NCBI GenBank assembly: GCA_040387855.1 | Contig: JAZKCY010000001.1 | Span: forward strand, 381,857 to 445,856 | DNA: 64,000 nt | Direction: 5' to 3' | Source: Patescibacteria group bacterium | GTDB taxonomy: Bacteria > Patescibacteriota > Minisyncoccia > Phycocordibacterales > JAKAEA01 | Part shown: in pieces, positions 690-42,041 of the stretch | Layout of the letters: each line of letters begins with the position of its first letter | Position numbering within the stretch: position 1 is the stretch's first letter | Position numbers and translations under genes: made by a program | Notes under the pieces: generated by a model | Seen by the model: the letters and a program-made list of their open reading frames with translations, nothing else | The model's database searches: none | Told to the model about the DNA's origin: nothing

Positions 690-693
690 AGTT

Positions 694-14376: not shown

Positions 14377-15390
14377 ATGTCTATGTTTTCTAAAAAGCTC
14401 GGGATTGATTTAGGTACCGCAAATACATTGGTGTTTTTACCGGGTAAAGGGATTGTGTTAAATGAACCATCAGTAGTTGCTATTTCTGAGCAAGATAATC
14501 GGATTTTGGCAGTAGGAGCCGATGCAAAACAAATGATTGGCCGAACTCCAGACAATATTATTGCGTATCGACCAATGAAAGACGGTGTTATTGCTGATTA
14601 CCGAGTTACTGAAGCAATGCTTAGATACTATATTAATAAAGCATTAGGTAAGTGGAGTTTTTTTAAGCCTGAAGTAATGGTTTCAGTGCCAGCCGGAGTT
14701 ACATCTACAGAACGACGCGCTGTTATTGAAGCTGCAATTAAGGCTGGAGCAAAAAATGCTTATGTAGTGAAAGAGCCTATTCTTGCTGCTATCGGAGCTG
14801 GTATTTCTATTCAAGAACCTGTAGGTCGCATGATTGTTGATATTGGAGGAGGTACAACAGACGTTGCTGTGATATCTCTTGGTGGTATTGTGTCGTGTAC
14901 ATCAGTCAAAGTTGCTGGAAATAAAGTGGATACTGCAATCATAGACTATATAAAGAAGACATTTAACCTTTCTATTGGAGATAAAACCGCTGAGGATATC
15001 AAAATTCAGATTGGATCGGCTATTCCGCTTGAAGAGGAACTCTCAATGACTATCAAGGGGCGTGATTTTGTAACTGGCCTTCCACGATCTGTTGAAATTA
15101 AAACTAATGAAATCGTAAAGTGTTTGGCAAAAGAACTTCGGGAGATGATTAATGCTATTAAGACTGTATTGCAGGATACTCCACCAGAACTTGCTTCAGA
15201 TATTATTGACCAGGGAATTATTATGACGGGTGGATCATCACAATTGAGAAATCTCCCAGAACTTGTATTCCGAAGAACTGGTGTTAAAGCCACTCTTGCT
15301 GACGATGCACTCTTTTGTGTTGCAAAAGGAACTGGTATTGCACTCGAACATCTTGATACTTACAAGAAGAGTATTATATCTAAGCGATAA
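14377..15390 (+). CDS. mreB: Rod-shape/actin-like protein MreB (paralog 1)
   Basis: GIDLGTANTLV N-terminal actin-fold phosphate-1 motif. Conserved throughout. Confidence 0.85.
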   Translation: MSMFSKKLGIDLGTANTLVFLPGKGIVLNEPSVVAISEQDNRILAVGADAKQMIGRTPDNIIAYRPMKDGVIADYRVTEAMLRYYINKALGKWSFFKPEVMVSVPAGVTSTERRAVIEAAIKAGAKNAYVVKEPILAAIGAGISIQEPVGRMIVDIGGGTTDVAVISLGGIVSCTSVKVAGNKVDTAIIDYIKKTFNLSIGDKTAEDIKIQIGSAIPLEEELSMTIKGRDFVTGLPRSVEIKTNEIVKCLAKELREMINAIKTVLQDTPPELASDIIDQGIIMTGGSSQLRNLPELVFRRTGVKATLADDALFCVAKGTGIALEHLDTYKKSIISKR

Positions 15391-24600: not shown

Positions 24601-26688
24601 GGTATTGATCTTACTTCTGGATGTTATGCCATTGCAGGAACATGTCTTTCAACTGGTGGATCAAGTCAATGGACAACTGCCGGAAATAATATTCACTTTA
24701 ATACAGGTAATGTAGGTATCGGAACAACATCTCCATTATCAGCACTAGCTCTTGGTACATCTACAACCGCCGCGGGAACAGCTGGTATTTATGAGTTTTT
24801 AACACTCAATAGTGCTTCTGGTGCAACACAGTTTGGAAATCAAATGTATGTAGTAAATGCACCTACAGGATCTGCAAATACTATGGTCGCTCAAATGATT
24901 CGAGTTGAAGATAGTACTGCACTCACAAATACCGTGCGAGGTCTTGAAGTACAAGCACACAGAGGTACAAATACATTGGGAGAAAATACTGGAGTTTCAG
25001 CATTCGGAAGAACATTCGGTATTAAGGGAGTAACTATTGGTGATGCCGGTGGGACACTTGCACCTGCTGGAGTCTACGGAGAAACTCGAGGAACAACACA
25101 GGGTAACGCATTCCGAGGATATTCAAATACTATTACTTCATCAAACCTTTCATATTTGTATCAAGAAACATCCGCATTTACTGGTGATGTATTTCGAGCC
25201 GATGTAGGAAATGGAGCTGGATCATTTAGTGGAAATCTTTTGAGATTGCAAGTTGCCGGAGTAAATAAATTTAATGTAAGTGCACATGGGACAACTACCA
25301 TTGGGGATGGAGTGAATTTTGCAGGTCTTGTGGTCTCAAATGGAGCCCTTACTGTAAGTGGTACTGCTACCTCAACATTCTCAAATGGAATAAATATAGC
25401 AGGAGGATGTTTTGCTGTTTCAGGAAGTTGTTTGTCAACAGGTGGTACAAGTCTTATCGGAACGACTGGTCAGTTTGCGTACTTTAGTGACACAAATACT
25501 GCAGTTGGTACTTCATCATTATTCTTGGCAACAAATGGTAATGTAGGAATTGGAACTACCTCACCATATGCAAAGCTTTCTGTTGTTGGTGAAATAGTAG
25601 CTTCACACTTTACTGGTACCACAACAGCAACCTCAACATTGGGAGGAGGTCTTTCTGCAACTCGTTTCCAAGCAACAGCAACCTCAACGATGGCAGGTAT
25701 AAATTTAACTGGTGGATGTTTTTCTATTTCAGGAACATGTCTTTCAGCAGGTGGTGGCTCTGGAACGGTTGGAGCTGGAACTACAGGATATGTGCCATTT
25801 TATGCAGCAGGTGGAACAACACTTACTGCAACATCTTCACTATTTATAGCTGCAAATGGAAATATTGGAATTAACACTGTAAGTCCAACAGCAGATCGAC
25901 TTCACATTGGGGCAGATAGTTCATGGACTGGTCTTCGGGTAGATGCTGGAACTGCAGGAACAAGTGGTGCGTATATTGATTTTTATGATCATCTTGGATC
26001 AAAGGCCGGAGGATTCGTGTATGACGAACTTGATGGTGACTCATTAAAGTTTAAAACATATTTTGGAAGTAATGATATAAAATTCATCACAAATAATAGT
26101 GATGAGCGAATGACTATTTCGGGTGCTAATGGATATGTTGGTATAGGAACCACATCACCTTATGCCGCACTCTCAGTAGCCGGTGCATCTGGAGTTGTTG
26201 CTAATATTTTTAATGCGACATCAACTACTGCAACATCAACATTTGCCGGAGGTCTTTCAATTGCAACCAACGGATTGGTATATGATCGTTCAACGGGATA
26301 TGTGGGTGTGGGAACTGCATTGGCAAAACGAAAGCTTGATGTAACTGATGCTTCAAATCCTCAAATGCGTTTGAGTCAAACAAACAACTCTGTATTTTCT
26401 GATTTTAAGGTTGCAGCAACAACTGGAGATCTTACTGTAAGTATAAATACTACAGCTGAAAATGTTATATTCAATCAGCCATCCGGTACAACAGGAGCAA
26501 ACGTATGGGCTTGTCAGGGAGACGCATGTCCTACTGCATATCTAAATCTTGCTGATGGAGGTAACTTTGTAGCAGAAAAAGCATACTACTTTGGAAACGG
26601 ATTTAAGATCTCAACTGTAGATGCATCTACAACAGCTGTCTACGACACTACAAATACAATCATCCTACAATTCGACGAAGCACCGTAA
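21622..26688 (+). CDS. Giant (1688 aa) secreted Gly/Thr/Ser-rich repeat protein (tail-fibre-like / beta-helical adhesin-like)
   Basis: Signal peptide. At least 7 copies of a GNVGIGTT(S/T)PYAKLSVAG module. Five copies of a GC(Y/F)A(I/V)(A/S)G(T/A/V)C Cys pair. About 120-bp repeats of ~85-90% identity at 22283, 24506 and 25615. Confidence 0.6.
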   Translation: MGTIFTKKLFSSYALSLFILVSFIVTSCFGIVLPEVASAALNKQINYQGKLTNASNVAVANGTYEMVFNLYTVSSGGSPIWTETRSGGSEVTVTNGLFSVMLGEVATLDAVNFNQTLYLGVTIEADAEMSPRKKLGVVPGAIDSERLGGLNSSQFLRADAANATSTASTYLTVTQNGAGKIAEFFGPSSASVLSITADGKVGIGTTTPYAKLSVAGAIVGEYFVGTSTATSTLGGGLSATRFQATATSTMAGINLASGCYAIAGACIGGSSLLGTTGQVAYFSGTNTAVGTSSLSFDNAGNVSIAKNLFGGIWTIDQNGIFYGTSTNSLGASYGNYTGFAVAVNSGGYVIDDQGNTLSTLFADEAGNSLTANYAANNFGQFFTGNGFTLDANNQKITSIGLGSTSAPSLSFNSDSNTGIFSPGADSIAFSIGGAERVTIGSTGNFGIGTTSPYAKLSVAGEVVASHFTATSTTATSTFANGLNITGGCYAVAGVCLSSGSSLTGTTGQLAYFSGTNTAIGTSSIFLATNQNVGIGSTTPGSKLSVNGTVAADSFNVLTNNEGYKIRGTTILNASSSISSLTIGVNAGANLGGNSSSNVAIGSFAMNSTLSGDSNIALGYSSLYTNETGNNNIAIGYSALDALLANSDNVALGTEAGKNTTGSNNLFLGHGAGYNGGTNAITSGSNNILIGYNVTGTSSTATNFLNIGNALYGNLSNGNIGIGSTSPNSKLSIVSQNAVGLEISAGDANSYTGLSLGRLAADANFSIAGTGGQWAQDATSGDLIIRTQTTDMFFDTNGGVGTSAFTILSGNGNVGIGTTSPYAKLSVAGTVVGQNFVATSTTATSTFAGGLVAGGTTGLIVLQNGNVGIGTTTPNQGSAGGGAAKVLSFSDPLNTVLRVTGGDVNAVFQTLNNDAVYVGPTSAHSLNLVTEGSSKLTILSGGNVGIGTTTPYAKLSVAGTIVGANFVGTTTATSTLGGGLSATRFQATATSTMAGIDLTSGCYAIAGTCLSTGGSSQWTTAGNNIHFNTGNVGIGTTSPLSALALGTSTTAAGTAGIYEFLTLNSASGATQFGNQMYVVNAPTGSANTMVAQMIRVEDSTALTNTVRGLEVQAHRGTNTLGENTGVSAFGRTFGIKGVTIGDAGGTLAPAGVYGETRGTTQGNAFRGYSNTITSSNLSYLYQETSAFTGDVFRADVGNGAGSFSGNLLRLQVAGVNKFNVSAHGTTTIGDGVNFAGLVVSNGALTVSGTATSTFSNGINIAGGCFAVSGSCLSTGGTSLIGTTGQFAYFSDTNTAVGTSSLFLATNGNVGIGTTSPYAKLSVVGEIVASHFTGTTTATSTLGGGLSATRFQATATSTMAGINLTGGCFSISGTCLSAGGGSGTVGAGTTGYVPFYAAGGTTLTATSSLFIAANGNIGINTVSPTADRLHIGADSSWTGLRVDAGTAGTSGAYIDFYDHLGSKAGGFVYDELDGDSLKFKTYFGSNDIKFITNNSDERMTISGANGYVGIGTTSPYAALSVAGASGVVANIFNATSTTATSTFAGGLSIATNGLVYDRSTGYVGVGTALAKRKLDVTDASNPQMRLSQTNNSVFSDFKVAATTGDLTVSINTTAENVIFNQPSGTTGANVWACQGDACPTAYLNLADGGNFVAEKAYYFGNGFKISTVDASTTAVYDTTNTIILQFDEAP

Positions 26689-26698
26689 AAATACTGCT

Positions 26699-27460
26699 AT
26701 GATAATTTCCGAACTGAAAGATTTATTAAAAAATATTGTACGATGGGCATTTGCATTCATAGCTTTGTCTACTTTTTTCTTTCTATTTTCTACACAAACG
26801 GTGACGATAAAAGGCAGGGAAGTGCCAGTGCCTTGGATGACTGATTCATCATATACGATTCAGTTTTTTGATACATTACAGCGTACATTGATACCAAGTG
26901 AAGTAGATCTTATTGTTACAAATCCATTCGATGCTTTTTTTATAGAGGTTAAATTATCTTTATTTTTAGCCTTTATTGTATTGTCGCCTTTTCTTTTGTG
27001 GGGAATACTACGATACCTTTCGCCAGCATTAAAACAGTCAGAAAGAAAATCATTATATAAAGTTGTATTACCATCTACTATTTTGTTTTTTAGCGGATGT
27101 CTATTTGCATATGCATACATTATTCCTTCTACGATAAAAATAATGTATGCACATGCGCCCAATATCAAAGCAATTCAGTACTTCAATGTTAATGATTTTA
27201 TTTCATTAGCACTCATGATGATGGTTGCTACGGGAATAATGTTTGTTCTTCCTGTGTGCATGGTTATCTCAAGTTATCTTGGGATAGTTAACCCCGTTAT
27301 TTGGAAACAGTATTGGCGCCAGGCAATTTTTGGATGTCTGTTAGTTACAGCAGTAATCACACCCGATGGTAGTGGAATTACCATGGCAATGCTTGCGATT
27401 CCACTCTGTTTACTCTATATAGTAGGCCTTTTTATCAGCTGGCGGTATAAAACTAGTTAG
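26699..27460 (+). CDS. tatC: Twin-arginine translocase subunit TatC
   Basis: Six TM helices with a TatC-like pattern (LSPFLLWGILRYLSPAL, ILFFSGCLFAYAYIIP). ATG at 26699 sits 11 nt after the giant gene's stop. Confidence 0.75.
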   Translation: MIISELKDLLKNIVRWAFAFIALSTFFFLFSTQTVTIKGREVPVPWMTDSSYTIQFFDTLQRTLIPSEVDLIVTNPFDAFFIEVKLSLFLAFIVLSPFLLWGILRYLSPALKQSERKSLYKVVLPSTILFFSGCLFAYAYIIPSTIKIMYAHAPNIKAIQYFNVNDFISLALMMMVATGIMFVLPVCMVISSYLGIVNPVIWKQYWRQAIFGCLLVTAVITPDGSGITMAMLAIPLCLLYIVGLFISWRYKTS

Positions 27461-27504
27461 TATATACTTATAGATAAGTAAAGCTTATAAATTATATAAA
27501 ATCT

Positions 27505-27711
27505 ATGTTTGGATTAGGCGTACCAGAACTCATAATTATAGTATTAGCGTTTGGATTACTCTTTTTTGGTAGTAGTAAAATATCTGAATTTTCACGAAGT
27601 CTGGGAAGAATGTCTGGAGAATATAAAAAGAGCAAGCGTGAGATTGAAAAAGAAATTGAGGAAAGTGAACTAAAAACAACTGATCAGAAAAAAACTGATA
27701 CAACTAGTTAG
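27505..27711 (+). CDS. tatA: Twin-arginine translocase subunit TatA/E
   Basis: MFGLGVPELIIIVLAFGLLFFGSSKISEFSRSLGR is the canonical TatA N-terminus. Confidence 0.85.
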   Translation: MFGLGVPELIIIVLAFGLLFFGSSKISEFSRSLGRMSGEYKKSKREIEKEIEESELKTTDQKKTDTTS

Positions 27712-27725
27712 TTCTAATTTGGTAT

Positions 27726-27986
27726 ATGGCAGTACATCACAAACATACGGCTTCAGAAGAAGTACAAAAAAAGACACGTCGAAACATGATCAAACTTGCA
27801 CTTTTTGGAGGTGCTGCTTTTGTACTTGGGAAAGTATTTAATTCTGTTACTGAACATTTCTCAGATAAAGTAATACGTAATGTAGATTTTCAGAATTTCA
27901 ATTTTCAAGAATCAGAAAAAAAACTCACTATATCTGAAAAAGATGGTGAGCCACTGCTTATCATCGAAAAAGATTCATTTAAATAA
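27726..27986 (+). CDS. Small protein (86 aa) with a twin-arginine (Tat) signal peptide
   Basis: KKTRRNMIKLALFGGAAFVLG fits S/T-R-R-x-hydrophobic-hydrophobic-K plus an h-region. The gene lies immediately downstream of tatA. Confidence 0.5.
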   Translation: MAVHHKHTASEEVQKKTRRNMIKLALFGGAAFVLGKVFNSVTEHFSDKVIRNVDFQNFNFQESEKKLTISEKDGEPLLIIEKDSFK

Positions 27987-28001: not shown

Positions 28002-29540
28002 ATGACGGACACTGAATTACAGGCACAAGCAGCACATGCACAAGGTTTAGCATACTTAGAAAAAGGTATGTTTGGTGAGGCACTATTTCATCTAAAAAAA
28101 GCAATTACATTAGTCCCTAATTATTTAGAAGCACACAACACTTTGGGGCGAGCCTATAATGAAACAGGTGACTTCGAGTTGTCTATACAAACATGTCTCC
28201 ATATACTAAGTCAAAATCCACAGGCATATTTTGTGTTACAAAATATTGCTAAATCGTATGGAGAAATGGGACGACACGCTGAAGCACTGTCGTATTATTA
28301 CAGGTATATCGCTCTTAGTCCTACTGCGGCTACAGCCTACAGTGACCTTTTTTTAACACTAAATTATCTACCAATGTCGCGTGAAGCAATGTTTGTAGAA
28401 CATTATAAGTTTCATATATTTGATAAAAATAATACAAATAGTAACTATCTGTATCAGAAAAATATTCATGATAGTAGTAAAAGAAAAATCAAAGTTGGTT
28501 ATGTTTCAGGGGATTTAAGAGAGCATCCTGTAGCGCATCTTTTTGTTCCTGTTATAAAAAATCATGACAGATCAAAATTCAATATTCATATCTATAATAA
28601 TACGCATAGTCAAGATGATGTTACCAAGAAAATAAAGAATTATGGTGATACCTGGCGCGATATACAAGCACTTTCGCATGAAGATACACTAGAACTCATT
28701 AGGTCAGATAATTTAGATATTCTTGTGGATTTATCTGGACATACTGGCAGTAATAGACTTTTGATTTTTGCAGCTCGGGCTGCTCCAATACAGGTAGCGT
28801 GGTTGGGATATATGAATACTACGGGTCTTAAAAATATGGATTATAGAATTACAGATTTTAATTTGTCAGTACCTGATTCTGAAAAATACTATACTGAAAA
28901 GTTATGGCGAGTTACAAATTCTTTTACGTTCGATCCACTTATGGAGTTGCCTGATATCGATGATTTACCAGCTTTAAAAAATGGGTTTATAACATTTGCC
29001 TCATTAAATAATTATAAAAAGATTACTTCTCATGTTTATGATGTATGGGCAGATATTTTAAGAAAGATACCAACATCACGCTTGGTATTTTCGCTCAAGG
29101 GTAATGACACGCTTAAACAGTCGGTACTTACAAAATTTGAACTAAGAGGTATTAGTTCAGATCGAATTAAAATAATTGATCAAAAATTGATTGAAGATTA
29201 TGTGAAATTTTTCAATGATATAGATATATTATTAGATCCATTTCCATTTACAGGGTGTATTACTGTATTTCATGGTCTGTGGGGTGGAGTGCCATCTATC
29301 GTTATGGAAGGAGTAACAGAATATGAGCGTAACGGTCCAACTGTTATGAAAAAAGTTGGATTAGATTCATGTATTGCACATAATCCTCAAGAATATGTAG
29401 ATATCGCAGTTTATTGGGCAAGTCATTTTGATGAATTGGCTGAATTGCGTAAAAAAATGCGTGAAAAGTTCCCTAAAAATGAGGATAAACTAGTAACAAA
29501 AGGCATTGAAGACGCATTTATAAAAATGTATAATAGATAG
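28002..29540 (+). CDS. TPR-repeat protein fused to a GT41 (O-GlcNAc-transferase-like) glycosyltransferase domain
   Basis: N-terminal TPRs. The C-terminal KIKVGYVSGDLREHPVAHLFVPV...NIHIYN block matches the OGT/GT41 catalytic-domain signature (LRVGYVSSDF.NHPTSHLM). Confidence 0.65.
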   Translation: MTDTELQAQAAHAQGLAYLEKGMFGEALFHLKKAITLVPNYLEAHNTLGRAYNETGDFELSIQTCLHILSQNPQAYFVLQNIAKSYGEMGRHAEALSYYYRYIALSPTAATAYSDLFLTLNYLPMSREAMFVEHYKFHIFDKNNTNSNYLYQKNIHDSSKRKIKVGYVSGDLREHPVAHLFVPVIKNHDRSKFNIHIYNNTHSQDDVTKKIKNYGDTWRDIQALSHEDTLELIRSDNLDILVDLSGHTGSNRLLIFAARAAPIQVAWLGYMNTTGLKNMDYRITDFNLSVPDSEKYYTEKLWRVTNSFTFDPLMELPDIDDLPALKNGFITFASLNNYKKITSHVYDVWADILRKIPTSRLVFSLKGNDTLKQSVLTKFELRGISSDRIKIIDQKLIEDYVKFFNDIDILLDPFPFTGCITVFHGLWGGVPSIVMEGVTEYERNGPTVMKKVGLDSCIAHNPQEYVDIAVYWASHFDELAELRKKMREKFPKNEDKLVTKGIEDAFIKMYNR

Positions 29541-29545
29541 TATCT

Positions 29546-29938
29546 ATGGCTATAAATGTATCGCGTAATCGAATTGACTTTAATGATATTCGTGCGGAGT
29601 CTGCTGAATTTAGAGACAGTGCAGAAAGTGTAAATGCAATTGGTAGTGCGTCAGGTGCTGAGGCAATTGATTATTCACTGGGCAATGTCGTAACAGCAAC
29701 AACAACTGGTGCAACTGTCTGGTCTGTGACAAATCCACCTGCATCAGGAAAAGCTGGGAGTTTTACCCTTATTCTTACAAACGGCGGTAGCCAGACTCAA
29801 ACATGGATGAGTGGTACAAAATGGCCAAGTGGAGCAGCGCCAACACTTACTTCGTCAGGGATAGATATACTTACCTTTTTTACGGTTGATGCTGGTACTA
29901 CATGGTATGGAGTGTTGGCAATGAGTGCTATGGCTTAA
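29546..29938 (+). CDS. Hypothetical Thr/Gly-rich protein
   Basis: 130-aa ORF, tightly spaced within the operon. No domain recognised. Confidence 0.35.
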   Translation: MAINVSRNRIDFNDIRAESAEFRDSAESVNAIGSASGAEAIDYSLGNVVTATTTGATVWSVTNPPASGKAGSFTLILTNGGSQTQTWMSGTKWPSGAAPTLTSSGIDILTFFTVDAGTTWYGVLAMSAMA

Positions 29939-29979
29939 TATTTTTTGATTATTGCACTATGTTTGGACTAGGAGCAAAA

Positions 29980-32900
29980 ATGAGAGCAATTCAACAAACG
30001 GTTGTAGCTATTATTGATAATAGTTATCTTTTTGGTTGGGGGAAAAATACTTCCGGTCAAATTGGTAATAGCTCATTAACGAGTCAATCAAGTCCTGTTG
30101 GTCTAGGTACAACTTCTGATTGGAAAATGCTCTCTGGAGCATACACATTTTCGGCGGGAATCAAGACAAATGGGACACTATGGACATGGGGCGCTGGGAT
30201 ATTCGGAACTTTGGGGGATAATACAGATTCAGTTGCAAAATCAAGTCCAATTCAAGTTGGAACACTCAGTGATTGGGATACTGTTAGTACAGCAAAATTT
30301 CATGCTTTAGCTCGTAAAACAAATGGAACGATCTGGGGATGGGGGTTTAATGGTGGTGGTCAACTTGGCCAAAATAATATTACAGATAGATCAAGCCCAG
30401 TTCAGATTGGGACTTTAGGTACTTGGACCCATATTTTTACCGGTGGTCAAATATCAGGTGCGCGAAAAAGTGATGGAACACTGTGGTCATGGGGCCGAAA
30501 CACCTATGGGGCACTTGGAATCAATGCTGCAGGAGATAGATCAAGTCCTATTCAAATTGGAACTTTGACAACATGGGATCATATGTCTTTCGGATACCGA
30601 ACTGGATTGGCAAGAAAAACCGATGGTACCATTTGGGGATGGGGCAATAACAATCTTGGACAAATTGGTAACAGTACGGTTGTTAACAGATCAAGCCCTG
30701 GACAAATCGGTACTCTTACAACCTGGAGTAGTATTCATGCAGGGAACTTACATGGTATAGGCCGAAGGTCAGATGGTACATTGTGGGGTTGGGGTTGGGC
30801 TGGAAAAGTTGGAGATAATACTGCAACCAATAAATCAAGTCCAGTACAAATTGGAACATTAAGCTCATGGCTACATGTCGCTACTGGTTATGACCACACA
30901 CTGGCAAAAAGATCAGATGGAACTATTTGGAGTTGGGGATATGCTACATACGGTCGTTTGGGGGATAATGCCACTACTGATAGATCGAGTCCTGTGCAAA
31001 TTGGAACACTAACAGAATGGGATTCCATTTTTGCAGGGAGCAGTTCTCATTCTTCGTTTGCTTTAAAAAGATATAATCTAGGTATGTTTGCATGGGGAGT
31101 AGGTTCCCTCGGTCAAATAGGAAATAATGATGTAAGTCAACAAGATAGTCCGTTACAAGTGGGTACACTCACTTCATGGGAGGGTGTAGCTGTTGGTGCT
31201 AGTACCGTGCATGCATGGAAATCAGATGGAACACTGTGGACATGGGGTAGAAACTCATACGGTCGTTTGGGAGATAACACAACCACGAACAGATCAAGTC
31301 CAGTCCAAATTGGTACCCTTAATGTATGGAAAATGGCAGCTTCAGGTACAGGCCACTCAAGTGCTGTAAGAACTAACGGAACATTGTGGTCATGGGGATC
31401 TGGTGCAAACGGAGAAATGGGAGATAACACAGCAATTTCTAAATCAAGTCCAGTACAAGTAGGAACACTCTCAATTTGGGCAGAAACGTCCGCAGGAAGT
31501 ACATTCACCGTTGCGCGTCGAACAAATAATACTATTTGGTCATGGGGTAGTAACTTGTATGGTCGTTTGGGTCAAAGCACTACTACAAATAGATCTAGTC
31601 CAGTGCAAATTGGAACATTAAGTAACTGGTCTGGTATTTCTGCAGGAGGCCAACATGCACTAGGAATAAAAACTGACGGTGGTATTTGGGCATGGGGTCT
31701 GAACACCTCTGGACAAATGGGAGATAATACTGCTGTTACAAAATCAAGTCCTGTTCGTATTGGGACTCTTACAAACTGGAAAGGTATTTCAGCGGGTGCA
31801 TCTCACAATGTTGCGTGGAAAACTGACGGATCATTATGGGCATGGGGAATAAATACAAACGGAAGATTGGGAGATAATACTACTACAACCAGATCAAGTC
31901 CTGTGCGTATTGGGACTTTATCTGATTGGGCTTCAGCTTCTGCCCAACTAGAGCATACTATTGCTCGAAAGACAGACGGTACGCTATGGGCCTGGGGAAA
32001 GGGAGACTATGGTCAGCTTGGAGATGGAATTGCACGACTTAAGAACACACCACTTCAAATCGGTACGCTAACAAACTGGGGAACTGTATCTATGGGAGCC
32101 TCACACACCGTTGCATGGAAAACAAATAATACTATTTGGGGATGGGGAATTGGGGGCCAAGTGGGAGACAATACCGCTGTTACAAGATCAAGCCCCGTAC
32201 AAATTGGAACGCTATCTACATGGCAATCTATTGATACTGGTGATTCACATACTGTAGCTATAAAGACTGACGGTACAATGTGGGCATGGGGAGCAAACAC
32301 GTCAGGCCAAGTAGGAGACAATACGAATGTTACAAAATCAAGTCCTGTACAGATTGGAACTTTAAACACATGGGCAAGTGTGTCGGCTGGAAATATTCAC
32401 TCTATTGCTCGAAAAACAGATAGTAGTATTTGGTCATGGGGACTTGGAAGTGTGGGTGCACTTGGAGATAATACAGCCACTACCAAATCAAGCCCGGTAC
32501 GAATTGGTACACTTAATACCTGGGCAAGTGTGACTGCTGGTGGAAACCACTCTCATGCAATAAAAGCTGATGGATCATTGTGGTCATGGGGTTACAATTT
32601 TTATGGGCAATTAGGCGATAGTTCAAATGTGGCTAAATCAAGTCCTGTTCGAGTTGGTACGCTCAATGATTGGTCAATTGTATCAGCAGGAATTCAGCAT
32701 TCATTAGCAATCAAAACAAACGGGACATTGTGGGCATGGGGATTTGGAACTTCCGGACAGCTTGGAGATAATACGGGTGGAACCTTCTCAAGTCCAATTC
32801 AAATTGGTACGCTCACTACTTGGGCTGGGGTGTCTGCAGGTGCAGAACACTCTCTTGGATGGAAAGCTGATGGAACTTTGTGGGCCTGGGGCTACAATGC

Positions 32901-33174
32901 ATCCGGACAATTGGGAGACGGTACATTTACTCAATATCTTAGTCCTATTCAAGTTGGTACGGTTTCTACATGGAGTACTGCTTCAGCTGGACCAAACCAC
33001 AGTGGTGCTGTGAGAGCCGATGGGACATTATGGATGTGGGGAACTCGTCTTAATGGTAGAATCGGAGATAACAACATGCCGGGTAAATCGAGCCCAATTA
33101 AAATAGGTACCATGAACGATTGGCGTACATTGGGTAACGGTCCAAATGGACTGATGAGTATTTCAATTAAATAA
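29980..33174 (+). CDS. RCC1/BLIP-II-type beta-propeller repeat protein (about 20 repeats), no signal peptide
   Basis: About 50-aa repeats (GTLWxWGxNxxGQLGDNTxxxxSSPVQIGTLxxW) occur at regular intervals. ATG at 29980 is preceded by AGGAG. The track's longer version starts at 29902. Confidence 0.7.
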   Translation: MRAIQQTVVAIIDNSYLFGWGKNTSGQIGNSSLTSQSSPVGLGTTSDWKMLSGAYTFSAGIKTNGTLWTWGAGIFGTLGDNTDSVAKSSPIQVGTLSDWDTVSTAKFHALARKTNGTIWGWGFNGGGQLGQNNITDRSSPVQIGTLGTWTHIFTGGQISGARKSDGTLWSWGRNTYGALGINAAGDRSSPIQIGTLTTWDHMSFGYRTGLARKTDGTIWGWGNNNLGQIGNSTVVNRSSPGQIGTLTTWSSIHAGNLHGIGRRSDGTLWGWGWAGKVGDNTATNKSSPVQIGTLSSWLHVATGYDHTLAKRSDGTIWSWGYATYGRLGDNATTDRSSPVQIGTLTEWDSIFAGSSSHSSFALKRYNLGMFAWGVGSLGQIGNNDVSQQDSPLQVGTLTSWEGVAVGASTVHAWKSDGTLWTWGRNSYGRLGDNTTTNRSSPVQIGTLNVWKMAASGTGHSSAVRTNGTLWSWGSGANGEMGDNTAISKSSPVQVGTLSIWAETSAGSTFTVARRTNNTIWSWGSNLYGRLGQSTTTNRSSPVQIGTLSNWSGISAGGQHALGIKTDGGIWAWGLNTSGQMGDNTAVTKSSPVRIGTLTNWKGISAGASHNVAWKTDGSLWAWGINTNGRLGDNTTTTRSSPVRIGTLSDWASASAQLEHTIARKTDGTLWAWGKGDYGQLGDGIARLKNTPLQIGTLTNWGTVSMGASHTVAWKTNNTIWGWGIGGQVGDNTAVTRSSPVQIGTLSTWQSIDTGDSHTVAIKTDGTMWAWGANTSGQVGDNTNVTKSSPVQIGTLNTWASVSAGNIHSIARKTDSSIWSWGLGSVGALGDNTATTKSSPVRIGTLNTWASVTAGGNHSHAIKADGSLWSWGYNFYGQLGDSSNVAKSSPVRVGTLNDWSIVSAGIQHSLAIKTNGTLWAWGFGTSGQLGDNTGGTFSSPIQIGTLTTWAGVSAGAEHSLGWKADGTLWAWGYNASGQLGDGTFTQYLSPIQVGTVSTWSTASAGPNHSGAVRADGTLWMWGTRLNGRIGDNNMPGKSSPIKIGTMNDWRTLGNGPNGLMSISIK

Positions 33175-33180
33175 TATTTT

Positions 33181-35124
33181 ATGGCAACCCTTACTGAAAT
33201 TCTAGAAATATCTGGAACATTAGAAAAAGCAGAAGAAATAGCTCGGCAATTAGTAGTGCAAGATCCAACATATATGTTGGATCTTCAGCTTATATTGAGC
33301 GCTCGTGGTAAAGTTGCAGAATCTAAAAAAATTATTGAAGATCTGAGTAATAAGTTTCCCAATGATCATAGAATAGCTTTCAACCAAGGATGGCACGTAT
33401 TGAATGAAGGTGATTTACAGCGGGGAATGGAACTCATAGATCGAGGAAGAAATGTGGGGGTATTTGGTTCACCCGCACTTCAAACAGATAAGCCCTTATG
33501 GGATGGGAAAAATGCCAAAGGAAAAACTATTTTACTTCGATGTGAAGGAGGATTGGGAGATGAAATTCTTAATATTCGTTTTGCTAAAGATATAGCAGAG
33601 AGAGGTGGAACAGTTATAGTAGCTTGTGATAAAGGTTTGCAAAGCGTGTTCTCTCGAGTTTCAGGCGTCGCCAAAACTATTTCTTTAGATCACATTCAAG
33701 ATGAGTACTTTGATGCATGGGTACCTGCTATGAGCGCTGTAAGAGTGTGTGGTCACACTTATGAAACACTTCCAAGTGAAGCTTATATTACTGCTTTACC
33801 AGAGAAAATTGCAGAATGGAATAAGACTGTTAATGCTGATAATGGAGTGTTGAAAGTTGGAATACGCTGGTCTGGCAATGCAGAATTTGAACATGAACAA
33901 ATGCGAAGATTCCCTTTCAAGCATATCTTGGATGTATTTGAAACTCCCAATGCTAAATTTTTTAGTTTACAACGTGATTCGGATTTGAAAGTGTTACCTC
34001 CTGAAGTTGTCGATTTAAGTGGTCTTATGAATACATGGGAAGATACAGCAGGAGTTATTGCAAACTTAGATTTAGTAATAACTTCATGTACAAGTGTTGC
34101 TCATATGGCGGCAGCAATGGGCAAAGAAACATGGATTATTGTTCCACTAATGCCATATTATACGTGGGCTATGCCTGGGAATAAAACTCCATGGTATAAA
34201 AGCGTGACGTTGTATAGACAAGAATCAGACACAAACTGGGAAGCCTCATTTATAAAGGTACGACAAGCATTAGAAGAATCGACAACTCAAGTAATACGTA
34301 CTAGTATTGATCCAATGCAAAATCACACAAAAAAGACGCTCCATTTCGTAGCAGGACTACCGCGTTCTGGTAGTACTATGCTCATTAGTTTGCTTGCCCA
34401 AAATCCTACTATTTTCGGTGCACCCGTTTCAGGTTTGGCTGGTATTGTAAACGGAGTAAATACTAATTGGGATAAAATAGAATTTCATAAGGAAGTTCCT
34501 AATGAAGAAGCAAAGATGTATACCTTGCGAGCTATTTTAGATAGCTATCATGCTGCAACATCTAAACCAATTATCCTAGATAAAGAGCGTCATTGGATTC
34601 GTTATATTTTATTGCTTGAAAAGTTATTAGACAGAAAAGTGAAAGTAATTGTTCCTGTTCGTCCTATTGCAGAAATACTCACTTCATTTGAAGTATTGCG
34701 ACAAAAGAATCCATTAACTCTCACAATGGTGGATGAAGTACTTGGTCCGAAATCTACATTATCTACACGTTGTGATTACTTTATGAATGAAGAAGGTCCT
34801 GTAGGGAGTTGTATCAATTATACTCGTGATGCTGTCATTTCCGGCTTGAGTGATCGTTTATTATTTGTGGATTACAATAAATTTATTGCTAATCCCGAGC
34901 GTGATCTAAAACGAATATATAGTTTCTTAGAAATCCCTTATTTTGAGCATGATTTGCATAACATAAAGCAGCTTACTATGAGTGATGATTCAATATGGAA
35001 GTATCCAGGATTACATGATGTTCGATCTGTCGTATCAAAAATCTCTGCTGATCCTATAAGTGTCCTTGGTCCTGAGCTTGTAGCAAAGTTTAGTCAGGGT
35101 GAACCATGGGAAAATTGGACATAA
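33181..35124 (+). CDS. Tri-partite enzyme: TPR-like N-terminus, GT9 (heptosyltransferase-like) glycosyltransferase, and a C-terminal sulfotransferase domain
   Basis: GT9 motifs KTILLRCEGGLGDEI and DLVITSCTSVAHMAAAMGKETWII. The C-terminus has a PAPS-binding-type LPRSGSTML P-loop (5'-PSB) and a downstream basic motif. Confidence 0.6.
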   Translation: MATLTEILEISGTLEKAEEIARQLVVQDPTYMLDLQLILSARGKVAESKKIIEDLSNKFPNDHRIAFNQGWHVLNEGDLQRGMELIDRGRNVGVFGSPALQTDKPLWDGKNAKGKTILLRCEGGLGDEILNIRFAKDIAERGGTVIVACDKGLQSVFSRVSGVAKTISLDHIQDEYFDAWVPAMSAVRVCGHTYETLPSEAYITALPEKIAEWNKTVNADNGVLKVGIRWSGNAEFEHEQMRRFPFKHILDVFETPNAKFFSLQRDSDLKVLPPEVVDLSGLMNTWEDTAGVIANLDLVITSCTSVAHMAAAMGKETWIIVPLMPYYTWAMPGNKTPWYKSVTLYRQESDTNWEASFIKVRQALEESTTQVIRTSIDPMQNHTKKTLHFVAGLPRSGSTMLISLLAQNPTIFGAPVSGLAGIVNGVNTNWDKIEFHKEVPNEEAKMYTLRAILDSYHAATSKPIILDKERHWIRYILLLEKLLDRKVKVIVPVRPIAEILTSFEVLRQKNPLTLTMVDEVLGPKSTLSTRCDYFMNEEGPVGSCINYTRDAVISGLSDRLLFVDYNKFIANPERDLKRIYSFLEIPYFEHDLHNIKQLTMSDDSIWKYPGLHDVRSVVSKISADPISVLGPELVAKFSQGEPWENWT

Positions 35125-35139
35125 TCCAATACGTTAAGT

Positions 35140-36459
35140 ATGAAACATTTCCATACAAATATTCAAGGATGGTTTTTTGCAGAATATTTTTTTGCTGACA
35201 TTGTTAAAAATGCACCTGATGGTGCGCATTTTGTTGAAGTTGGAAGTTGGAAAGGAAAGAGTGCTGTTTTTATGGCAGTTGAGATTGCCAACAGTGGAAA
35301 GCGAATAAAATTTGATTGTATTGACCATTGGAAGGGCTCGAAAGATACATACTTAGAAAACGAAGATCAAGCTGTTAAAGACGGTAATCTTTTTGAGGTT
35401 TTTAAAGAGAATATTGAGCCAGTACAAGAGTACATAAATGCTATCGATGGAGATAGCGCTGCTACAGCTTCACGTTATGCAGACGGATCTCTTGATTTTA
35501 TCTATATAGATGCTGCACATGATTATGAAAGCGTAAAAAGAGATATTAAGGCTTGGTTACCCAAATTAAAGTCAGATGGAGTCATTGCTGGGGATGATTT
35601 TACTGAAGCATTCCCTGGATTAGTTCAAGCTGTGCAAGAAATATTCCCTCAAGGATTATCAGTAATTCACCCTACATGGGTTGTGGATCGACGTACAATA
35701 AATTCAGAACAAGGATGTTCGATAATCTTTAGATGCCATACTGGTGATAATGTTCATGATGGAGTACGATTTGCTGGGGTAAGTAAAACAGAACTTGTTG
35801 TTAAGTGTTTTAAATCTATAGTGTCGGCAGCAGAAATTGTAAACCGTGATATTGAAATTGTGATTGTAGATGATCATTCAGAAAAGAAATGTATTGAAGC
35901 ACTTGAAGATGTGCTAACAACTTCACGACATCCACATAAAATAATTCATGTAACAGACACAGGTAATAAAGCATCGTTACGAGAATCATTCGAATATGCT
36001 CGTGATTATGGTAAAGAGCTTGTTTATTTTGTGGAGGATGATTATTTACACCTCCCTACATCATTACTGGAAATGATCGAGCAACAAACTGAGTTTAAAA
36101 ATAACTTAAACAATAAAGAAGTGGCATTTTATCCCGTTGATTATCCAGATCGATATCAACCTCAAGGAATATATCAATCAATGATAGTTCTTGGCAAACA
36201 CCGTCACTGGAGAACTACTCGACACTCAACACTTACTTTTTTTTCTTCTCGGAAAGCAGTTTTTGAATATTGGGAATTATTTGAAAAAATGTGGCAAGGG
36301 GAGGGTAATTTTGTAGATGAAGATCAAACGGTAAATAAACTGTGGGGTCCAGATATTCAGCTCTTTTCTCCAATTCCAACACTCGCTATTCATATGCAAT
36401 TCGAAGAACACAAACCTCCTTTTGTTGATTGGCAAAAGTATTGGGATGCTATACAGTAA
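35140..36459 (+). CDS. Fusion: class I SAM-dependent methyltransferase (Methyltransf_24/TylF-MycF/CmcI-like) plus GT-A-fold glycosyltransferase domain
   Basis: The N-terminus has VEVGSWKGKSAVFMA and DFIYIDAAHDYESV. The C-terminal ~250 aa (IVIVDDHS...YFVEDDYLH...HW(R)T...LAIHM) is paralogous to 37046..37816 and 37813..38580. Confidence 0.6.
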   Translation: MKHFHTNIQGWFFAEYFFADIVKNAPDGAHFVEVGSWKGKSAVFMAVEIANSGKRIKFDCIDHWKGSKDTYLENEDQAVKDGNLFEVFKENIEPVQEYINAIDGDSAATASRYADGSLDFIYIDAAHDYESVKRDIKAWLPKLKSDGVIAGDDFTEAFPGLVQAVQEIFPQGLSVIHPTWVVDRRTINSEQGCSIIFRCHTGDNVHDGVRFAGVSKTELVVKCFKSIVSAAEIVNRDIEIVIVDDHSEKKCIEALEDVLTTSRHPHKIIHVTDTGNKASLRESFEYARDYGKELVYFVEDDYLHLPTSLLEMIEQQTEFKNNLNNKEVAFYPVDYPDRYQPQGIYQSMIVLGKHRHWRTTRHSTLTFFSSRKAVFEYWELFEKMWQGEGNFVDEDQTVNKLWGPDIQLFSPIPTLAIHMQFEEHKPPFVDWQKYWDAIQ

Positions 36460-36463
36460 CACT

Positions 36464-37033
36464 ATGAAATTAAATCTTGGCTGTGGCTTCAATAAACTGG
36501 ATGGATATATAAATGTAGATAATTCGGCTGTATGTAAGCCTGATCAGGTGTTTGATATAGAATCGACCCCATGGCCTTGGCAAGATAGTTCGATTGACGA
36601 GATCAGATTAGATCATGTTTTGGAGCACATTGGTGTGGACCCAAAAACATATATTTCAGTATGGAAAGAAATATGGCGCGTATCAAAACCCAATGCTCAG
36701 ATTTTTATTCGAGTTCCACACTGGAGGCATGAAAACTTTGCACATGATCCTACACATGTACGTCCTATTACTCCTGTTGGTATTGCCATGTTTGATCAGC
36801 TACGTAACAGGGAAGACGAAAAGCGTGGAGGTCAAGAAACAAAGCTTGGACTTATGTATGCAATAGATGTTGCTATAGAACGTGTTGAATATGTGTTTGT
36901 CCCCGAAATACAGCAAGCTTTAGAAAAGAAATTTATATCTCAAGAAAAAGCTTCTTCACTTATGGAACATGAAAATAATGTATGTCAGGAAATTAAAATC
37001 GGTGTGCGAGTTATGAAGCCTTGTCGAGGCTAG
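36464..37033 (+). CDS. Class I SAM-dependent methyltransferase (Methyltransf_11-like)
   Basis: MKLNLGCGFNKLDGYINVD is the glycine-rich SAM-binding motif I. Confidence 0.6.
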   Translation: MKLNLGCGFNKLDGYINVDNSAVCKPDQVFDIESTPWPWQDSSIDEIRLDHVLEHIGVDPKTYISVWKEIWRVSKPNAQIFIRVPHWRHENFAHDPTHVRPITPVGIAMFDQLRNREDEKRGGQETKLGLMYAIDVAIERVEYVFVPEIQQALEKKFISQEKASSLMEHENNVCQEIKIGVRVMKPCRG

Positions 37034-37045
37034 CATCGATAAACT

Positions 37046-37816
37046 ATGAAATTAGATATTATTTTACGGACACATTCTTTAGGTAATGTGCATCCAGAAA
37101 AAAGAGTAATGACGGATTCTAAGGAAGAAATGCTTATTAAATGTGTTTTTTCTTTAATAAAATCAATAGATACTATCAAAGGTGCTCATGATATAAAGCT
37201 AGCAATAATAGATGATCACTCTTCTGAATTATGTATGCAGAAGCTTAAAAAAATGGTGAGTGATCTTAAATATCCCTATATATTAATACATCTTGAAGAT
37301 ACGGGAAATAATGCTTCTTTAAAAAAGTGTTATGAATATGCGCATGATAATGCGCGTGATGTTATTTATTTTGTAGAGGATGATTATCTACATAATCCGA
37401 GCGCTCTAGTAGAGATGATTGAATCATATGAGCTGTTCCAATCCAATTTAGGGGGAACAGATATCGCATTATTGCCGTATGATGATCCCGATAATTATAA
37501 ACCAGGTTGGATTCATCCCAGCCGAATAGTATTGAGCAAAAATCGCTATTGGAGAACAAATACAATTACAAATGGTACCTTCATGATATCAAAGAAAGTA
37601 CTATTGGATTTTTGGGATACATTTATGGCATTTACTCAATATGGTACAGGTTTGAAGTCTAATGAATCTGCAACAATAAATAAAATTTGGAGTGAGTCTG
37701 TTCGCCTTTTTACTCCTATGCCAAGCTTGGCAATTCATATGCATCATACATTGAGAATGTCTCCATTTATTGATTGGAAAAGTTTGTGGGATTCAATGGA
37801 TACATCACATTTATGA
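37046..37816 (+). CDS. GT-A-fold glycosyltransferase (DXD = EDDY), tandem paralog 2
   Basis: MKLDIILRTHS...IIDDHS...YFVEDDYLH...RYWRTN...LAIHMH. Its TGA overlaps the next gene's start (ATGA). Confidence 0.55.
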   Translation: MKLDIILRTHSLGNVHPEKRVMTDSKEEMLIKCVFSLIKSIDTIKGAHDIKLAIIDDHSSELCMQKLKKMVSDLKYPYILIHLEDTGNNASLKKCYEYAHDNARDVIYFVEDDYLHNPSALVEMIESYELFQSNLGGTDIALLPYDDPDNYKPGWIHPSRIVLSKNRYWRTNTITNGTFMISKKVLLDFWDTFMAFTQYGTGLKSNESATINKIWSESVRLFTPMPSLAIHMHHTLRMSPFIDWKSLWDSMDTSHL

Positions 37817-38580
37817 AATTAGATATTATTTTACGAACTCATTCTACAGGTAACTTGCGACCAGGCACACGTTTTCTACAAGTACCAAAAGAACAGTTGG
37901 TTTTAACATGTACCACTTCACTCATAAATTCTGCGAATCTCGTTTCGCCAGATGACCACGAAATAAAAATAGTAATAGTAGATGATCACTCAACAGAATC
38001 ATGCGTTGCTGGCTTGAAAAGAATTTTAGCAACTTCAAAACATCCAACACAACTAATTCAGATAGAACAACCGGGGCATGCTGCATCGCTTATGGCTTGC
38101 TATGAATATGGTAGAGATCATGCTCGAGATGTTATCTATTTTATTGAAGATGATTACCTTCACTTTCCGTCTGCGATCTCTGAAATGATTGAAATGTACG
38201 ATTGGGTAAAGGCTAGCCTGGGTGATAAAGAAGTTGCGCTCTTAGCAAATGATGATCCTGATAGTTATCGTAATCCTTGGATGGAACCAGCAAGGATTGT
38301 ATTAGGTAAGTATCGTCATTGGAGAACAAACTTGTTTTCTACTAGCTCATTTTGGTTTTCAAAAAAAACACTGCTTAAGTATTGGGACATTTATATGCGG
38401 CATACACATTACGGGGAACATGAAGTGATTCATGAGGGTACGACTGTCGATAGAGTATGGCGACATTCTGTTCAATTGTTTACTCCAATACCATCATTAG
38501 CTGTTCATATGGAATACACAGACAATATTGCTCCATTTGTTTATTGGGAAGGCCTGTGGAAAAGTATTATAGTGCCGTAG
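37813..38580 (+). CDS. GT-A-fold glycosyltransferase (DXD = EDDY), tandem paralog 3
   Basis: MKLDIILRTHSTGN...IVIVDDHS...YFIEDDYLH...RHWRTN...LAVHME. Confidence 0.55.
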   Translation: MKLDIILRTHSTGNLRPGTRFLQVPKEQLVLTCTTSLINSANLVSPDDHEIKIVIVDDHSTESCVAGLKRILATSKHPTQLIQIEQPGHAASLMACYEYGRDHARDVIYFIEDDYLHFPSAISEMIEMYDWVKASLGDKEVALLANDDPDSYRNPWMEPARIVLGKYRHWRTNLFSTSSFWFSKKTLLKYWDIYMRHTHYGEHEVIHEGTTVDRVWRHSVQLFTPIPSLAVHMEYTDNIAPFVYWEGLWKSIIVP

Positions 38581-40973: not shown

Positions 40974-42041
40974 ATGTTCAAAAATTTCCGACAAAGACTT
41001 ACAAAAATGTTTAGCAATGAGATCGGCATCGATCTTGGAACTGCTAATACATTGGTCTATTTACGTGGTCGTGGAATTGTAATTAATGAACCATCAGTAG
41101 TTGCAATCAATCAGAAGACAGGAACTGTAGTTGCAATTGGAACACAAGCAAAAGATATGCTTGGACGTACTCCTCAGCATATTATCGCAGTAAAACCGCT
41201 TGTAGACGGAGTTATATCAGATTTTGAGGTGACAGAAGAAATGATTACCTATCTACTAAACAAAGCGCAGAAAGATACAAAAAAGTTTCTCGGTCCAAAA
41301 GTAGTGGTGGGTGTGCCATCAGGAATTACCAATGTTGAGACACGAGCAGTTCGAGATGCTACAAAAAACGCAGGAGCTAGAGAAGTATATATAGTTGAAG
41401 AGCCTATGGCCGCTGCTGTTGGTATTCGCTTGCCTGTAATGGAACCAGTTGGAAATATGATTATTGATATTGGTGGTGGAACAACCGATATTGCCGTTAT
41501 ATCACTTGGTGGTGTTGTTGTTTCAAAAAATCTAAAAATAGCAGGTGATAAGCTTAATGCAGATATCACTACCTATATCCGAAGTGAATTTAAAATTTTA
41601 ATTGGTGAAAAGACTGCAGAGCAAATTAAAATTACAATTGGCGCAGTATTGCCGGGAGAAACTCCCATGGAATCTATAATTAAGGGAAGAGATCTCGTTA
41701 CTGGTTTGCCACGTGAAGTAGTTATTACAGATGCTGATATCCGAGAAGCAACATCTCAATCTATAGAGACATTGCTTGAAGCTTCAAAAGAAGTTCTTGA
41801 AACTACACCTCCAGAAATTATTGCTGATGTCATGCACCGAGGGATTTACCTTACTGGTGGAGGGGCTCTTATAAAGGGACTTCATGTGTTACTTGCAGAC
41901 TTTCTGAAAATTCCTGTTCATGTGGCAGAGGATCCTCTTACTGCTGTTGCCCGTGGAACTGGTATTATTTTAGAAAATATACCAAAATATCAAGATATTT
42001 TGATTCAAAACGAAGATGATCTACCAGCCGCGAGATACTAA
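40974..42041 (+). CDS. mreB: Rod-shape protein MreB (paralog 2, in the mreBCD-mrdA operon)
   Basis: GIDLGTANTLVY. Full-length actin-fold. Confidence 0.9.
   Translation: MFKNFRQRLTKMFSNEIGIDLGTANTLVYLRGRGIVINEPSVVAINQKTGTVVAIGTQAKDMLGRTPQHIIAVKPLVDGVISDFEVTEEMITYLLNKAQKDTKKFLGPKVVVGVPSGITNVETRAVRDATKNAGAREVYIVEEPMAAAVGIRLPVMEPVGNMIIDIGGGTTDIAVISLGGVVVSKNLKIAGDKLNADITTYIRSEFKILIGEKTAEQIKITIGAVLPGETPMESIIKGRDLVTGLPREVVITDADIREATSQSIETLLEASKEVLETTPPEIIADVMHRGIYLTGGGALIKGLHVLLADFLKIPVHVAEDPLTAVARGTGIILENIPKYQDILIQNEDDLPAARY

Follow-up and report, generated by a model that had tools for sequence, protein, structure and literature searches.

The window analysed here, a 64,000-nucleotide stretch of a genome assembly from a Patescibacteria group bacterium (GCA_040387855.1, contig JAZKCY010000001.1, positions 381,857 to 445,856 of the forward strand), carries at 33181-35124 a gene for a 647-amino acid (aa) protein in which a TPR-like module, a GT9-like glycosyltransferase (GT) domain and a 3'-phosphoadenosine-5'-phosphosulfate (PAPS)-type sulfotransferase (ST) domain are joined. 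The gene is part of a cluster (28002-38580) that also encodes an RCC1-repeat protein immediately upstream, a 130-aa protein (p130) homologous to the tip domain of phage tail-fibre proteins, and further glycosyltransferases and methyltransferases (MT) (Table 1). The product was identical (100%) to NCBI entry MES2436819.1 from a Patescibacteria metagenome-assembled genome, which is labelled 'sulfotransferase domain-containing protein' and nothing more.

Architecture and conserved motifs of the 647-aa protein

An earlier note on this DNA had described the product as a GT9 glycosyltransferase fused to a PAPS-type sulfotransferase. The open reading frame and all motif strings quoted there were present as described (EGGLGDEI at aa 122-129; SCTSVAHMAAAMGKETW at aa 302-318, comprising SCTSVAH...GKETW; GLPRSGSTML at aa 392-401), and the fused architecture was borne out, with a sulfotransferase rather than a generic P-loop kinase at the C-terminus and a middle domain of GT-B fold whose nearest structural relatives were GT9 enzymes. 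An AlphaFold2 (AF2) model built on 69 homologues (mean predicted local distance difference test score (pLDDT) 92.8) was resolved into TPR-like hairpins, the GT-B domain, a disordered linker (aa 376-381) and a sulfotransferase fold (aa 386-647). The N-terminal two-thirds in which GT9 hallmarks had been noted had to be narrowed: the GT9-like domain spans aa ~100-375, whereas aa 1-92, which had been overlooked, form TPR-like hairpins. The Pfam TPR_14 match in this module was weak, and the family profile of the N-terminal half (alignment A2) matched consensus TPR proteins in the PDB and no glycosyltransferase by sequence. By analogy, aa 1-92 are the presumed substrate-docking module; the TPR domain of FlmG, the Caulobacter flagellin glycosyltransferase, binds its flagellin substrate (PMC7591256).

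In the model, the N-lobe of the GT domain (aa ~116-189) has four strands; the C-lobe occupies aa ~207-346, and aa 354-375 form a closing helix. The proposed match of this domain to GT9 held for the structural neighbours and not for the sequence, in which the Pfam score remained below the cutoff and the donor-motif Asp is a Cys. The GT half matched no Pfam family of its own, more distant TPR-GT relatives did pass the Pfam GT9 cutoff (27.4 and 55.4 bits), and an NCBIfam scan of the 647-aa protein made no significant addition (TIGR02193, E=0.11). We therefore use the term GT9-like, membership of GT9 itself not being demonstrable from these sequences.

Catalytic and binding motifs of both enzyme domains were invariant in alignments of 26-69 homologues. 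Within the GT domain, neither family alignment showed any variation at E122, G124, G126 or D127, and G123 was invariant in one of them. D127 stands directly after strand beta1 (aa 116-120 in the AF2 model) and, by topology and motif, is presumed to act as catalytic base, corresponding to WaaC D13 and TibC D110 (TibC numbering from PMC4358343). Local pairwise alignment to GT9 enzymes did not recover the N-terminal GD motif, for which reason this equivalence is one that we infer. R229, W230, G232, E237 and R242 were likewise invariant in both alignments, and H238 in one. RRFP aligned weakly with WaaF KRWP (local alignment, score 21), which would mean a Lys-to-Arg replacement, and R242 is the presumed counterpart of the phosphate-binding Lys of the GT9 K-x-W-P motif (WaaC K192, TibC K230). 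In the sugar-donor motif, S302, T304 and H308 were invariant in both alignments and G314 in one; C303 was invariant in A2 and nearly so in A1. Both hhalign and local alignment placed DLVITSCTSVAHMAAAMG on WaaC KFVVSVDTGLSHLTAAL with T304 and H308 retained, so that C303 replaces WaaC D261; the hhalign match to WaaC and WaaF covered this C-terminal motif only, at low probability.

The assignment of the C-terminal domain to the sulfotransferases was secured by Pfam, structure and profile comparisons. Within aa 389-599 it matched Pfam Sulfotransfer_1 (E=3.5e-13, 50 bits, cutoff 22) and Sulfotransfer_3 (E=1.5e-11, 45.4 bits, cutoff 27), and it was covered by PHROG 27463 (E=9e-52), the function of which is unassigned. 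Across 26 sequences, down to 28% identity, P394, R395 and G397 of the 5'-phosphosulfate-binding (PSB) loop were invariant, as were D467 and W472, with K468 nearly so. The loop has the P-K/R-x-G-T/S-T pattern of such enzymes and aligned with VPRSGTT of TPST1, and the VR of aa 493-494 with the VR of TPST1 MVRDGR.

By sequence, profile and structure alike, the ST domain matched the tyrosylprotein sulfotransferases TPST1 and TPST2 best (ST-half profile against TPST1, E=3.5e-9, with PRSG, DK and VR aligned), and R395 and K468 aligned with Arg78 and Lys158 of TPST2. These matches would fit a protein on which both domains act independently, the GT O-glycosylating Ser/Thr of the RCC1 or tail-fibre protein and the TPST-like domain sulfating Tyr (or Ser/Thr) in the manner of RaxST and TPST. 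We regard this as distinctly unlikely. The catalytic Glu that follows the PSB helix in TPSTs (Glu99 of TPST2) is not conserved, the aligned residues being A414, P415 and V416; an olefin-synthase ST, Stf9 and 3-OST scored almost equal to the TPSTs in the structural comparison; the 1064-aa RCC1 protein contains just 15 Tyr; and close ST homologues seldom occur without a GT, as expected if the ST needs the GT product. A414-P415 was invariant in 37 of the 37 members of the GT-ST clade to which the window enzyme belongs (ST alignment A3, aa 413-415 of the window protein), and in most viral standalone STs a G-E lies close to where TPSTs have the Glu, one residue off. The invariant A-P suggests a different catalytic base or a different acceptor.

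Table 1. Coordinates in the window of the gene, its parts and the neighbouring genes
Feature	Position	Strand	Extent and basis
Whole gene	33181..35124	+	ATG start; 647 aa; TPR, GT9-like and sulfotransferase parts
TPR-like module	33181..33456	+	aa 1-92; six helices forming three hairpins; AF2 secondary structure
GT-B glycosyltransferase domain, GT9-like	33478..34305	+	aa ~100-375
E122-G-G-L-G-D127 loop after strand beta1	33544..33561	+	conservation
R229-W-S-G-N...E237-H238...R242-R-F-P245	33865..33915	+	conservation
S302-C303-T304-S-V-A-H308, GT9 'D-T/S-G-x-x-H' sugar-donor motif	34084..34104	+	hhalign to WaaC/WaaF; Pfam partial match; conservation
Linker between both enzymes	34306..34329	+	aa 376-383, flexible; pLDDT <50 for aa 376-381
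PAPS-type sulfotransferase domain	34330..35124, including stop codon	+	aa 384-647
5'-phosphosulfate-binding loop G392-L-P394-R395-S-G397-S-T399	34354..34377	+	conservation; alignment to TPST1
3'-phosphate-binding motif V493-R494-x7-S502	34657..34686	+	R494 and S502 invariant
TPR + GT41 (OGT/HMW1C-type protein glycosyltransferase family)	28002..29540	+	Pfam; joined to the enzyme family in the L011 fusion
p130, 130 aa, homologue of the tip domain at the C-terminus of phage tail-fibre proteins	29546..29938	+	PHROG 7760 and 9017 (tail fibre)
RCC1-repeat protein, ~1064 aa	29980..33174, reading frame open from 29902	+	Pfam RCC1; repeat analysis; stop 6 bp before the enzyme start
Methyltransf_24 + GT2 fusion protein	35140..36459	+	Pfam; 15 bp downstream of the enzyme; homologues in 17/80 viral loci
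Methyltransferase-like protein 'MT203'	36422..37033	+	after the ST gene in viral loci; GT-fused in L114, L146, L147 and BUCT-ZZ01
Two soluble GT2 glycosyltransferases	37046..38580 (37046-37816; 37774-38580)	+	Pfam; viral homologues

Gene neighbourhood and related loci

Repeat analysis divided the RCC1 protein into ~21 blades, 50 aa long and all bearing an SSP motif (consensus GTLWxWGxNxxGQLGDNTxxxxSSPVQIGTLxxWxxxSAGxxHxxAxKTD), with a Ser+Thr content of 24% and 24 N-x-S/T sites. No TM-like segment or signal peptide was found in any of the eight proteins of 28002-38580, and no flippase, polymerase, ligase or polyprenyl-phosphate transferase in that cluster; the large proteins that flank it do have N-terminal hydrophobic segments. 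A 1688-aa protein (21622-26688) has an N-terminal hydrophobic segment and tail-fibre PHROG matches, and after its gene lie tatC, tatA and a gene for an 86-aa protein with the twin-arginine motif TRRNMIKL (26621-27986). Loci L001 and L003 kept the order giant protein, tatC, tatA, small Tat-signal protein immediately before the module. Promoter and terminator scans covering 26-41 kb did not rise above chance.

Fusion of the two enzymes was recurrent. Among the 120 best database homologues the domain order was GT-ST in 57 and ST-GT in 51, the GT half alone making up the remaining 12; with more than 100 fused homologues in both orders the fusion cannot be called rare, and this recurrence shows the fusion to be no artefact. 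In a neighbour-joining tree of GT domains the GT-ST proteins fell into two separate clades and the ST-GT proteins into a third, which points to two or more fusion events for GT-ST and one for ST-GT. GT-methyltransferase fusions were found in L114, L146, L147 and phage BUCT-ZZ01. In Patescibacteria UBA2135 (L011:1649-5698, DCXN01000003.1), one 1349-aa protein comprises ST, GT9-like, S-adenosylmethionine (SAM)-dependent methyltransferase, TPR and GT41 parts, from which it follows that these enzymes work together; an RCC1 gene lies 131 bp upstream, and a second GT9-like gene, a GT2 gene and a p130 homologue are nearby. The TPR + GT9-like unit defines a very large superfamily, for which the search gave 35,682 cluster representatives at E<=1e-3, or 6,343 with the threshold tightened to E<=1e-30. 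Giant sequences of 1.4-3.1 kaa are frequent among them, each with 3-6 separate query-matching stretches (e.g. P0122-P0259; L019:3824-13654; L021:6707-11161), which suggests tandem units. The searches made returned no characterised member, we know of no function characterised for the superfamily, and the closest viral structure predictions were uncharacterised. TPR-GT41 homologues lay within 10 kb of a GT9-like gene in 54 of 80 distant bacterial loci (L009-L088; Azospirillum, Bradyrhizobium, Microcoleus and others), which suggests a general GT41/GT9-like partnership.

The module is abundant: a scan of IMG/VR with the GT-half alignment yielded at least 592 confirmed stretches at 40-48% identity, against 27-44% in species-representative bacterial genomes, and the best 80 of these viral stretches were used for context counts. 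The GT gene stood alone in 78 of the 80 loci, with a separate ST gene within 3 kb in 46. An RCC1 gene adjoined the GT gene (gap <300 bp) in 76, upstream and on the same strand in 75; the median gap was 36 bp, and 72 loci had exactly one RCC1 open reading frame. Three of the four exceptions lay at contig ends, and the fourth had its RCC1 gene 2.2 kb downstream. The pair was kept in 20 of 21 clusters when the viral loci were clustered at 70% identity, and in 6 of 7 further contigs, one of which (Paceibacter) showed full synteny with the window cluster. Loci L004, L005 and L007 had the RCC1 gene immediately upstream of the GT on the same strand, and L006 had it downstream on the opposite strand. 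The modal viral order was p130, RCC1, GT, ST, MT203 (and GT2), collinear with the window; a p130 homologue was present in 35 of the 80 loci. A scan seeded with the ST gave 122 confirmed viral stretches, and in 54 of the 65 loci with visible upstream sequence a GT was adjacent or fused, while eight more distant STs had neither a GT nor an RCC1 gene. With 122 viral ST stretches against more than 592 for the GT, the ST looks like an add-on to the GT.

Two viral loci tie the pair to tail-fibre genes. A 177-kb viral contig with tail sheath and large terminase (L130) is ordered virion structural protein, collagen-like tail fibre, tail-fibre assembly protein, RCC1, GT, ST and methyltransferases, with the terminase and tail-sheath genes a few genes beyond; the tail fibre ends in the p130 domain and the RCC1 protein has 1097 aa. 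The cultured T4-like Synechococcus phage BUCT-ZZ01 (L170, ON615601.1, locus 690-8572) shares this layout except for the ST: tail fibre ending in a p130-like domain, a 166-aa protein, a 'BNR repeat' protein and a 571-aa GT-MT fusion. UTS52180.1, annotated as 'BNR repeat domain protein', belongs to the RCC1-repeat proteins and matched the one of the window at E=1.8e-170, and the 'hypothetical' protein UTS52179.1 (571 aa) is the GT9-like-methyltransferase fusion. On a 353-kb contig (L004:2841-9956), the RCC1-repeat proteins themselves include the p130 domain (Pfam PF26209, Phage_phiTE_241_C), so a tail-fibre-tip domain and an RCC1 propeller can form one protein. Among the loci examined, no single polypeptide held both RCC1 repeats and the enzyme.

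This setting recalls tail-fibre chaperones, which are typically encoded just downstream of the fibre gene, as the enzyme gene directly follows a fibre-associated gene. A protein that acts mainly as a chaperone or assembly factor of the fibre-like protein encoded upstream, rather than as a catalyst, with one or both enzyme domains degenerate, would also be consistent with the TPR module, with the Asp-to-Cys exchange in the GT9 donor motif and with the Asn that some clade members have in place of Arg/Lys in the PSB loop. We nevertheless judge such a role very improbable: the family-invariant residues are those expected for catalysis or cofactor binding, both in the GT (E122, G124, G126, D127, R229, W230, R242, S302, T304, H308) and in the ST (P394, R395, G397, D467, R494, S502), and L130 already has a dedicated tail-fibre assembly protein before its RCC1 gene.

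A doubtful but weightier alternative is that the sulfated saccharide is built on a non-protein acceptor, such as a cell-envelope polysaccharide or glycolipid (or, where phages carry the gene, a glycan on the surface of their host, as in seroconversion or superinfection exclusion), with the RCC1 protein as a lectin or receptor-binding partner. Most characterised GT9 enzymes act on lipopolysaccharide (LPS) cores, phage glycan-modifying 'moron' genes often adjoin tail-fibre genes, the GT2 neighbours had weak PHROG matches to GtrB-like O-antigen conversion proteins, a set of GT, ST and MT resembles glycan tailoring as in Nod factors, and the eight distant viral STs stand alone. To be set against this are the lack in the cluster of the membrane and polymer-assembly functions named above, the retention of the module in Patescibacteria, which to our knowledge are generally regarded as lacking LPS (so that a classical GT9 acceptor is probably absent), the TPR modules and fused GT41, which point to protein substrates, and the almost obligatory, tight RCC1-GT pair.

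Proposed function and comparison with known systems

With moderate confidence, we read the 647-aa protein as a soluble bifunctional tailoring enzyme of a mainly phage-carried protein-glycosylation module. Its TPR module would dock the RCC1-repeat beta-propeller protein encoded upstream, the GT domain, with D127 as general base, would move a sugar from a nucleotide-sugar donor onto Ser/Thr of the SSP-bearing blades, and the tethered sulfotransferase would then sulfate the transferred sugar with PAPS. The neighbouring soluble GT2, methyltransferase and TPR-GT41 enzymes would extend and methylate the glycan, and the product of this cytoplasmic glycosylation would be a sulfated, methylated glycoprotein of tail-fibre or adhesin type. 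The RCC1 protein is the presumed acceptor; that adjacency marks the substrate, and that fusion means sulfation of the sugar, is what we infer. The earlier expectation of a sulfated saccharide is kept in that a sulfated sugar still appears likeliest, and amended in that it would probably sit on a glycoprotein rather than on a product of the Nod-factor or sulfolipid type, a protein acceptor being favoured because the genomic context points to the adjacent RCC1-repeat protein. A sub-variant in which the TPST-like domain sulfates the protein directly is less likely. More tentatively, we propose that a widespread, phage-derived post-translational modification system, built on a TPR-guided GT9-like enzyme with fused or adjacent ST and methyltransferase add-ons, puts sulfated, methylated O-glycans on RCC1 propellers of the tail-fibre apparatus, and that Patescibacteria adopted this system for an RCC1 protein of their own.

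Several findings weigh against the bifunctional tailoring enzyme. The match to Pfam Glyco_transf_9 (PF01075) reached E=0.069 and 12.9 bits, below the 22-bit cutoff and confined to aa 287-316, and where GT9 enzymes have D-T/S-G-x-x-H (WaaC D261-T262-G263...H266) the protein reads C303-T304-S305...H308. The roles given to D127 as catalytic base and R242 as phosphate binder rest on motif and topology, and the TPST catalytic Glu is not conserved in the ST. The RCC1 protein has no signal peptide, and its adjacency to the GT fits a lectin partner or a chaperone relationship as well. In a Parcubacteria locus (L003:5692-8099, JAIOOV010000003.1), a GT-ST homologue of 51% identity directly follows a p130 homologue, with no RCC1 gene. 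The sulfate donor is a further such point. That PAPS-synthesis genes are lacking from the window, as had been noted earlier, was confirmed: Pfam scans of the window found no adenosine 5'-phosphosulfate (APS) kinase and no ATP sulfurylase, and for E. coli CysC, CysN and CysD phmmer detected nothing homologous, either in the window or in the 168 loci tested first. A PAPS donor is nonetheless plausible, because sat, cysC and cysN are present in dozens of genomes of the candidate phyla radiation (CPR) (PMC7906910); phage copies presumably rely on host PAPS.

TibC and Aah (bacterial autotransporter heptosyltransferases, BAHT; GT9-type protein O-glycosyltransferases) are among the closest known systems. 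TibC, a heptosyltransferase of GT9 type that acts on protein, has four strands in its N-lobe (PMC4358343), as does the model of the window enzyme. Identity is ~12%, the iron-finger and dodecamer features of TibC are not established by the fold comparison, and the window enzyme differs in its N-terminal TPR module, its fused sulfotransferase, the Cys in place of the donor-motif Asp and its presumed acceptor, an RCC1 beta-propeller instead of an autotransporter beta-helix. From WaaC and WaaF (GT9, PF01075) it is set apart by its score below the Pfam cutoff, the Cys at the D261 equivalent and the extra TPR and ST domains; these are LPS enzymes, and the host group is, as said, regarded as lacking LPS. 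FlmG and the OGT/HMW1C-type GT41 enzymes have the same design as the window enzyme, an N-terminal TPR domain followed by a C-terminal GT-B domain in a soluble, cytoplasmic protein, the GT of FlmG being described as GT-B only (PMC7591256). FlmG may be closer to the neighbouring GT41 gene than to the GT9-like domain; a TPR-GT41 gene belongs to the window cluster, and GT41 is fused to the enzyme family in L011.

For the sulfotransferase, the PSB loop PRSG, the Lys of DK and the 3'-phosphate-binding Arg of VR align with human TPST1/2, tick TPST and, by analogy, RaxST. The window ST is 16-20% identical to TPSTs, their catalytic Glu is not conserved in it, and its acceptor is more probably a sugar. 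Heparan sulfate N-deacetylase/N-sulfotransferase (NDST) is likewise a fusion with an ST, and differs in being eukaryotic and Golgi-resident, with a deacetylase and not a glycosyltransferase as partner domain. The nearest prior idea is the computational prediction by Iyer et al. (2010) of sulfotransferase/dioxygenase operons that modify co-encoded tail-collar or collagen-like proteins (PMC2938197). As in the window, a bacterial or phage ST is there predicted to modify a co-encoded phage-tail-type protein; in those operons hydroxylases make the sulfation site and PAPS synthetases are included, with no GT9-like enzyme and no RCC1 protein (PMC2938197).

Genomic background and biological meaning

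The window is bacterial in content: Pfam scans identified tatC, two mreB genes, mreC, two PBP2/FtsI-type penicillin-binding proteins, greA, aminoacyl-tRNA synthetases, mraW, a Mur ligase, peptide deformylase (PDF), a formyltransferase and ribosome recycling factor (RRF). It was judged to be neither a phage genome nor an obvious prophage, and megablast of 25-45 kb found no near-identical DNA in cultured phages. The two MreB paralogues (14377-15390 and 40974-42041) are both full-length (Pfam MreB_Mbl E=4e-137 and 3e-134), and mreC and a PBP2-type gene come after the latter alone. An EPSP_synthase-family enzyme (MurA/AroA fold; 12337-14091, minus strand) carries an N-terminal HTH_3 (Cro/C1-type) DNA-binding domain, a class II Asp/Asn/Lys-type tRNA synthetase (45349-47250, plus strand) a C-terminal DUF2000 domain, and a GDSL lipase/acylhydrolase (58405-59973, plus strand) an N-terminal SKICH-like domain, SKICH being a mostly eukaryotic domain.

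The literature was searched for Patescibacteria sulfotransferases and for phage systems that pair a sulfotransferase with RCC1, with nothing specific found and no description of the module. Its domains are familiar kinds; what is new is their combination and its proposed target. Sulfated glycoconjugates are uncommon in bacteria, and for phage virion proteins they are not known to have been described. If the proposed function is correct, this would be, as far as is known, the first dedicated glyco-sulfation system for such proteins, and a dedicated glyco-sulfating enzyme pair would be new chemistry for phage-host recognition. No role is known for the RCC1-repeat proteins of phages (PMC7247149). 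The proposal would give a function to these unexplained proteins of phages and CPR bacteria, and the tight RCC1-GT pair in tail-fibre clusters provides a testable hypothesis for the phage members. For BUCT-ZZ01 it is directly testable, because the host, Synechococcus elongatus PCC 7942, is a standard genetic model. More speculatively, a fibre module of phage type that brings along enzymes for its modification may be relevant to the attachment of Patescibacteria episymbionts to their hosts.

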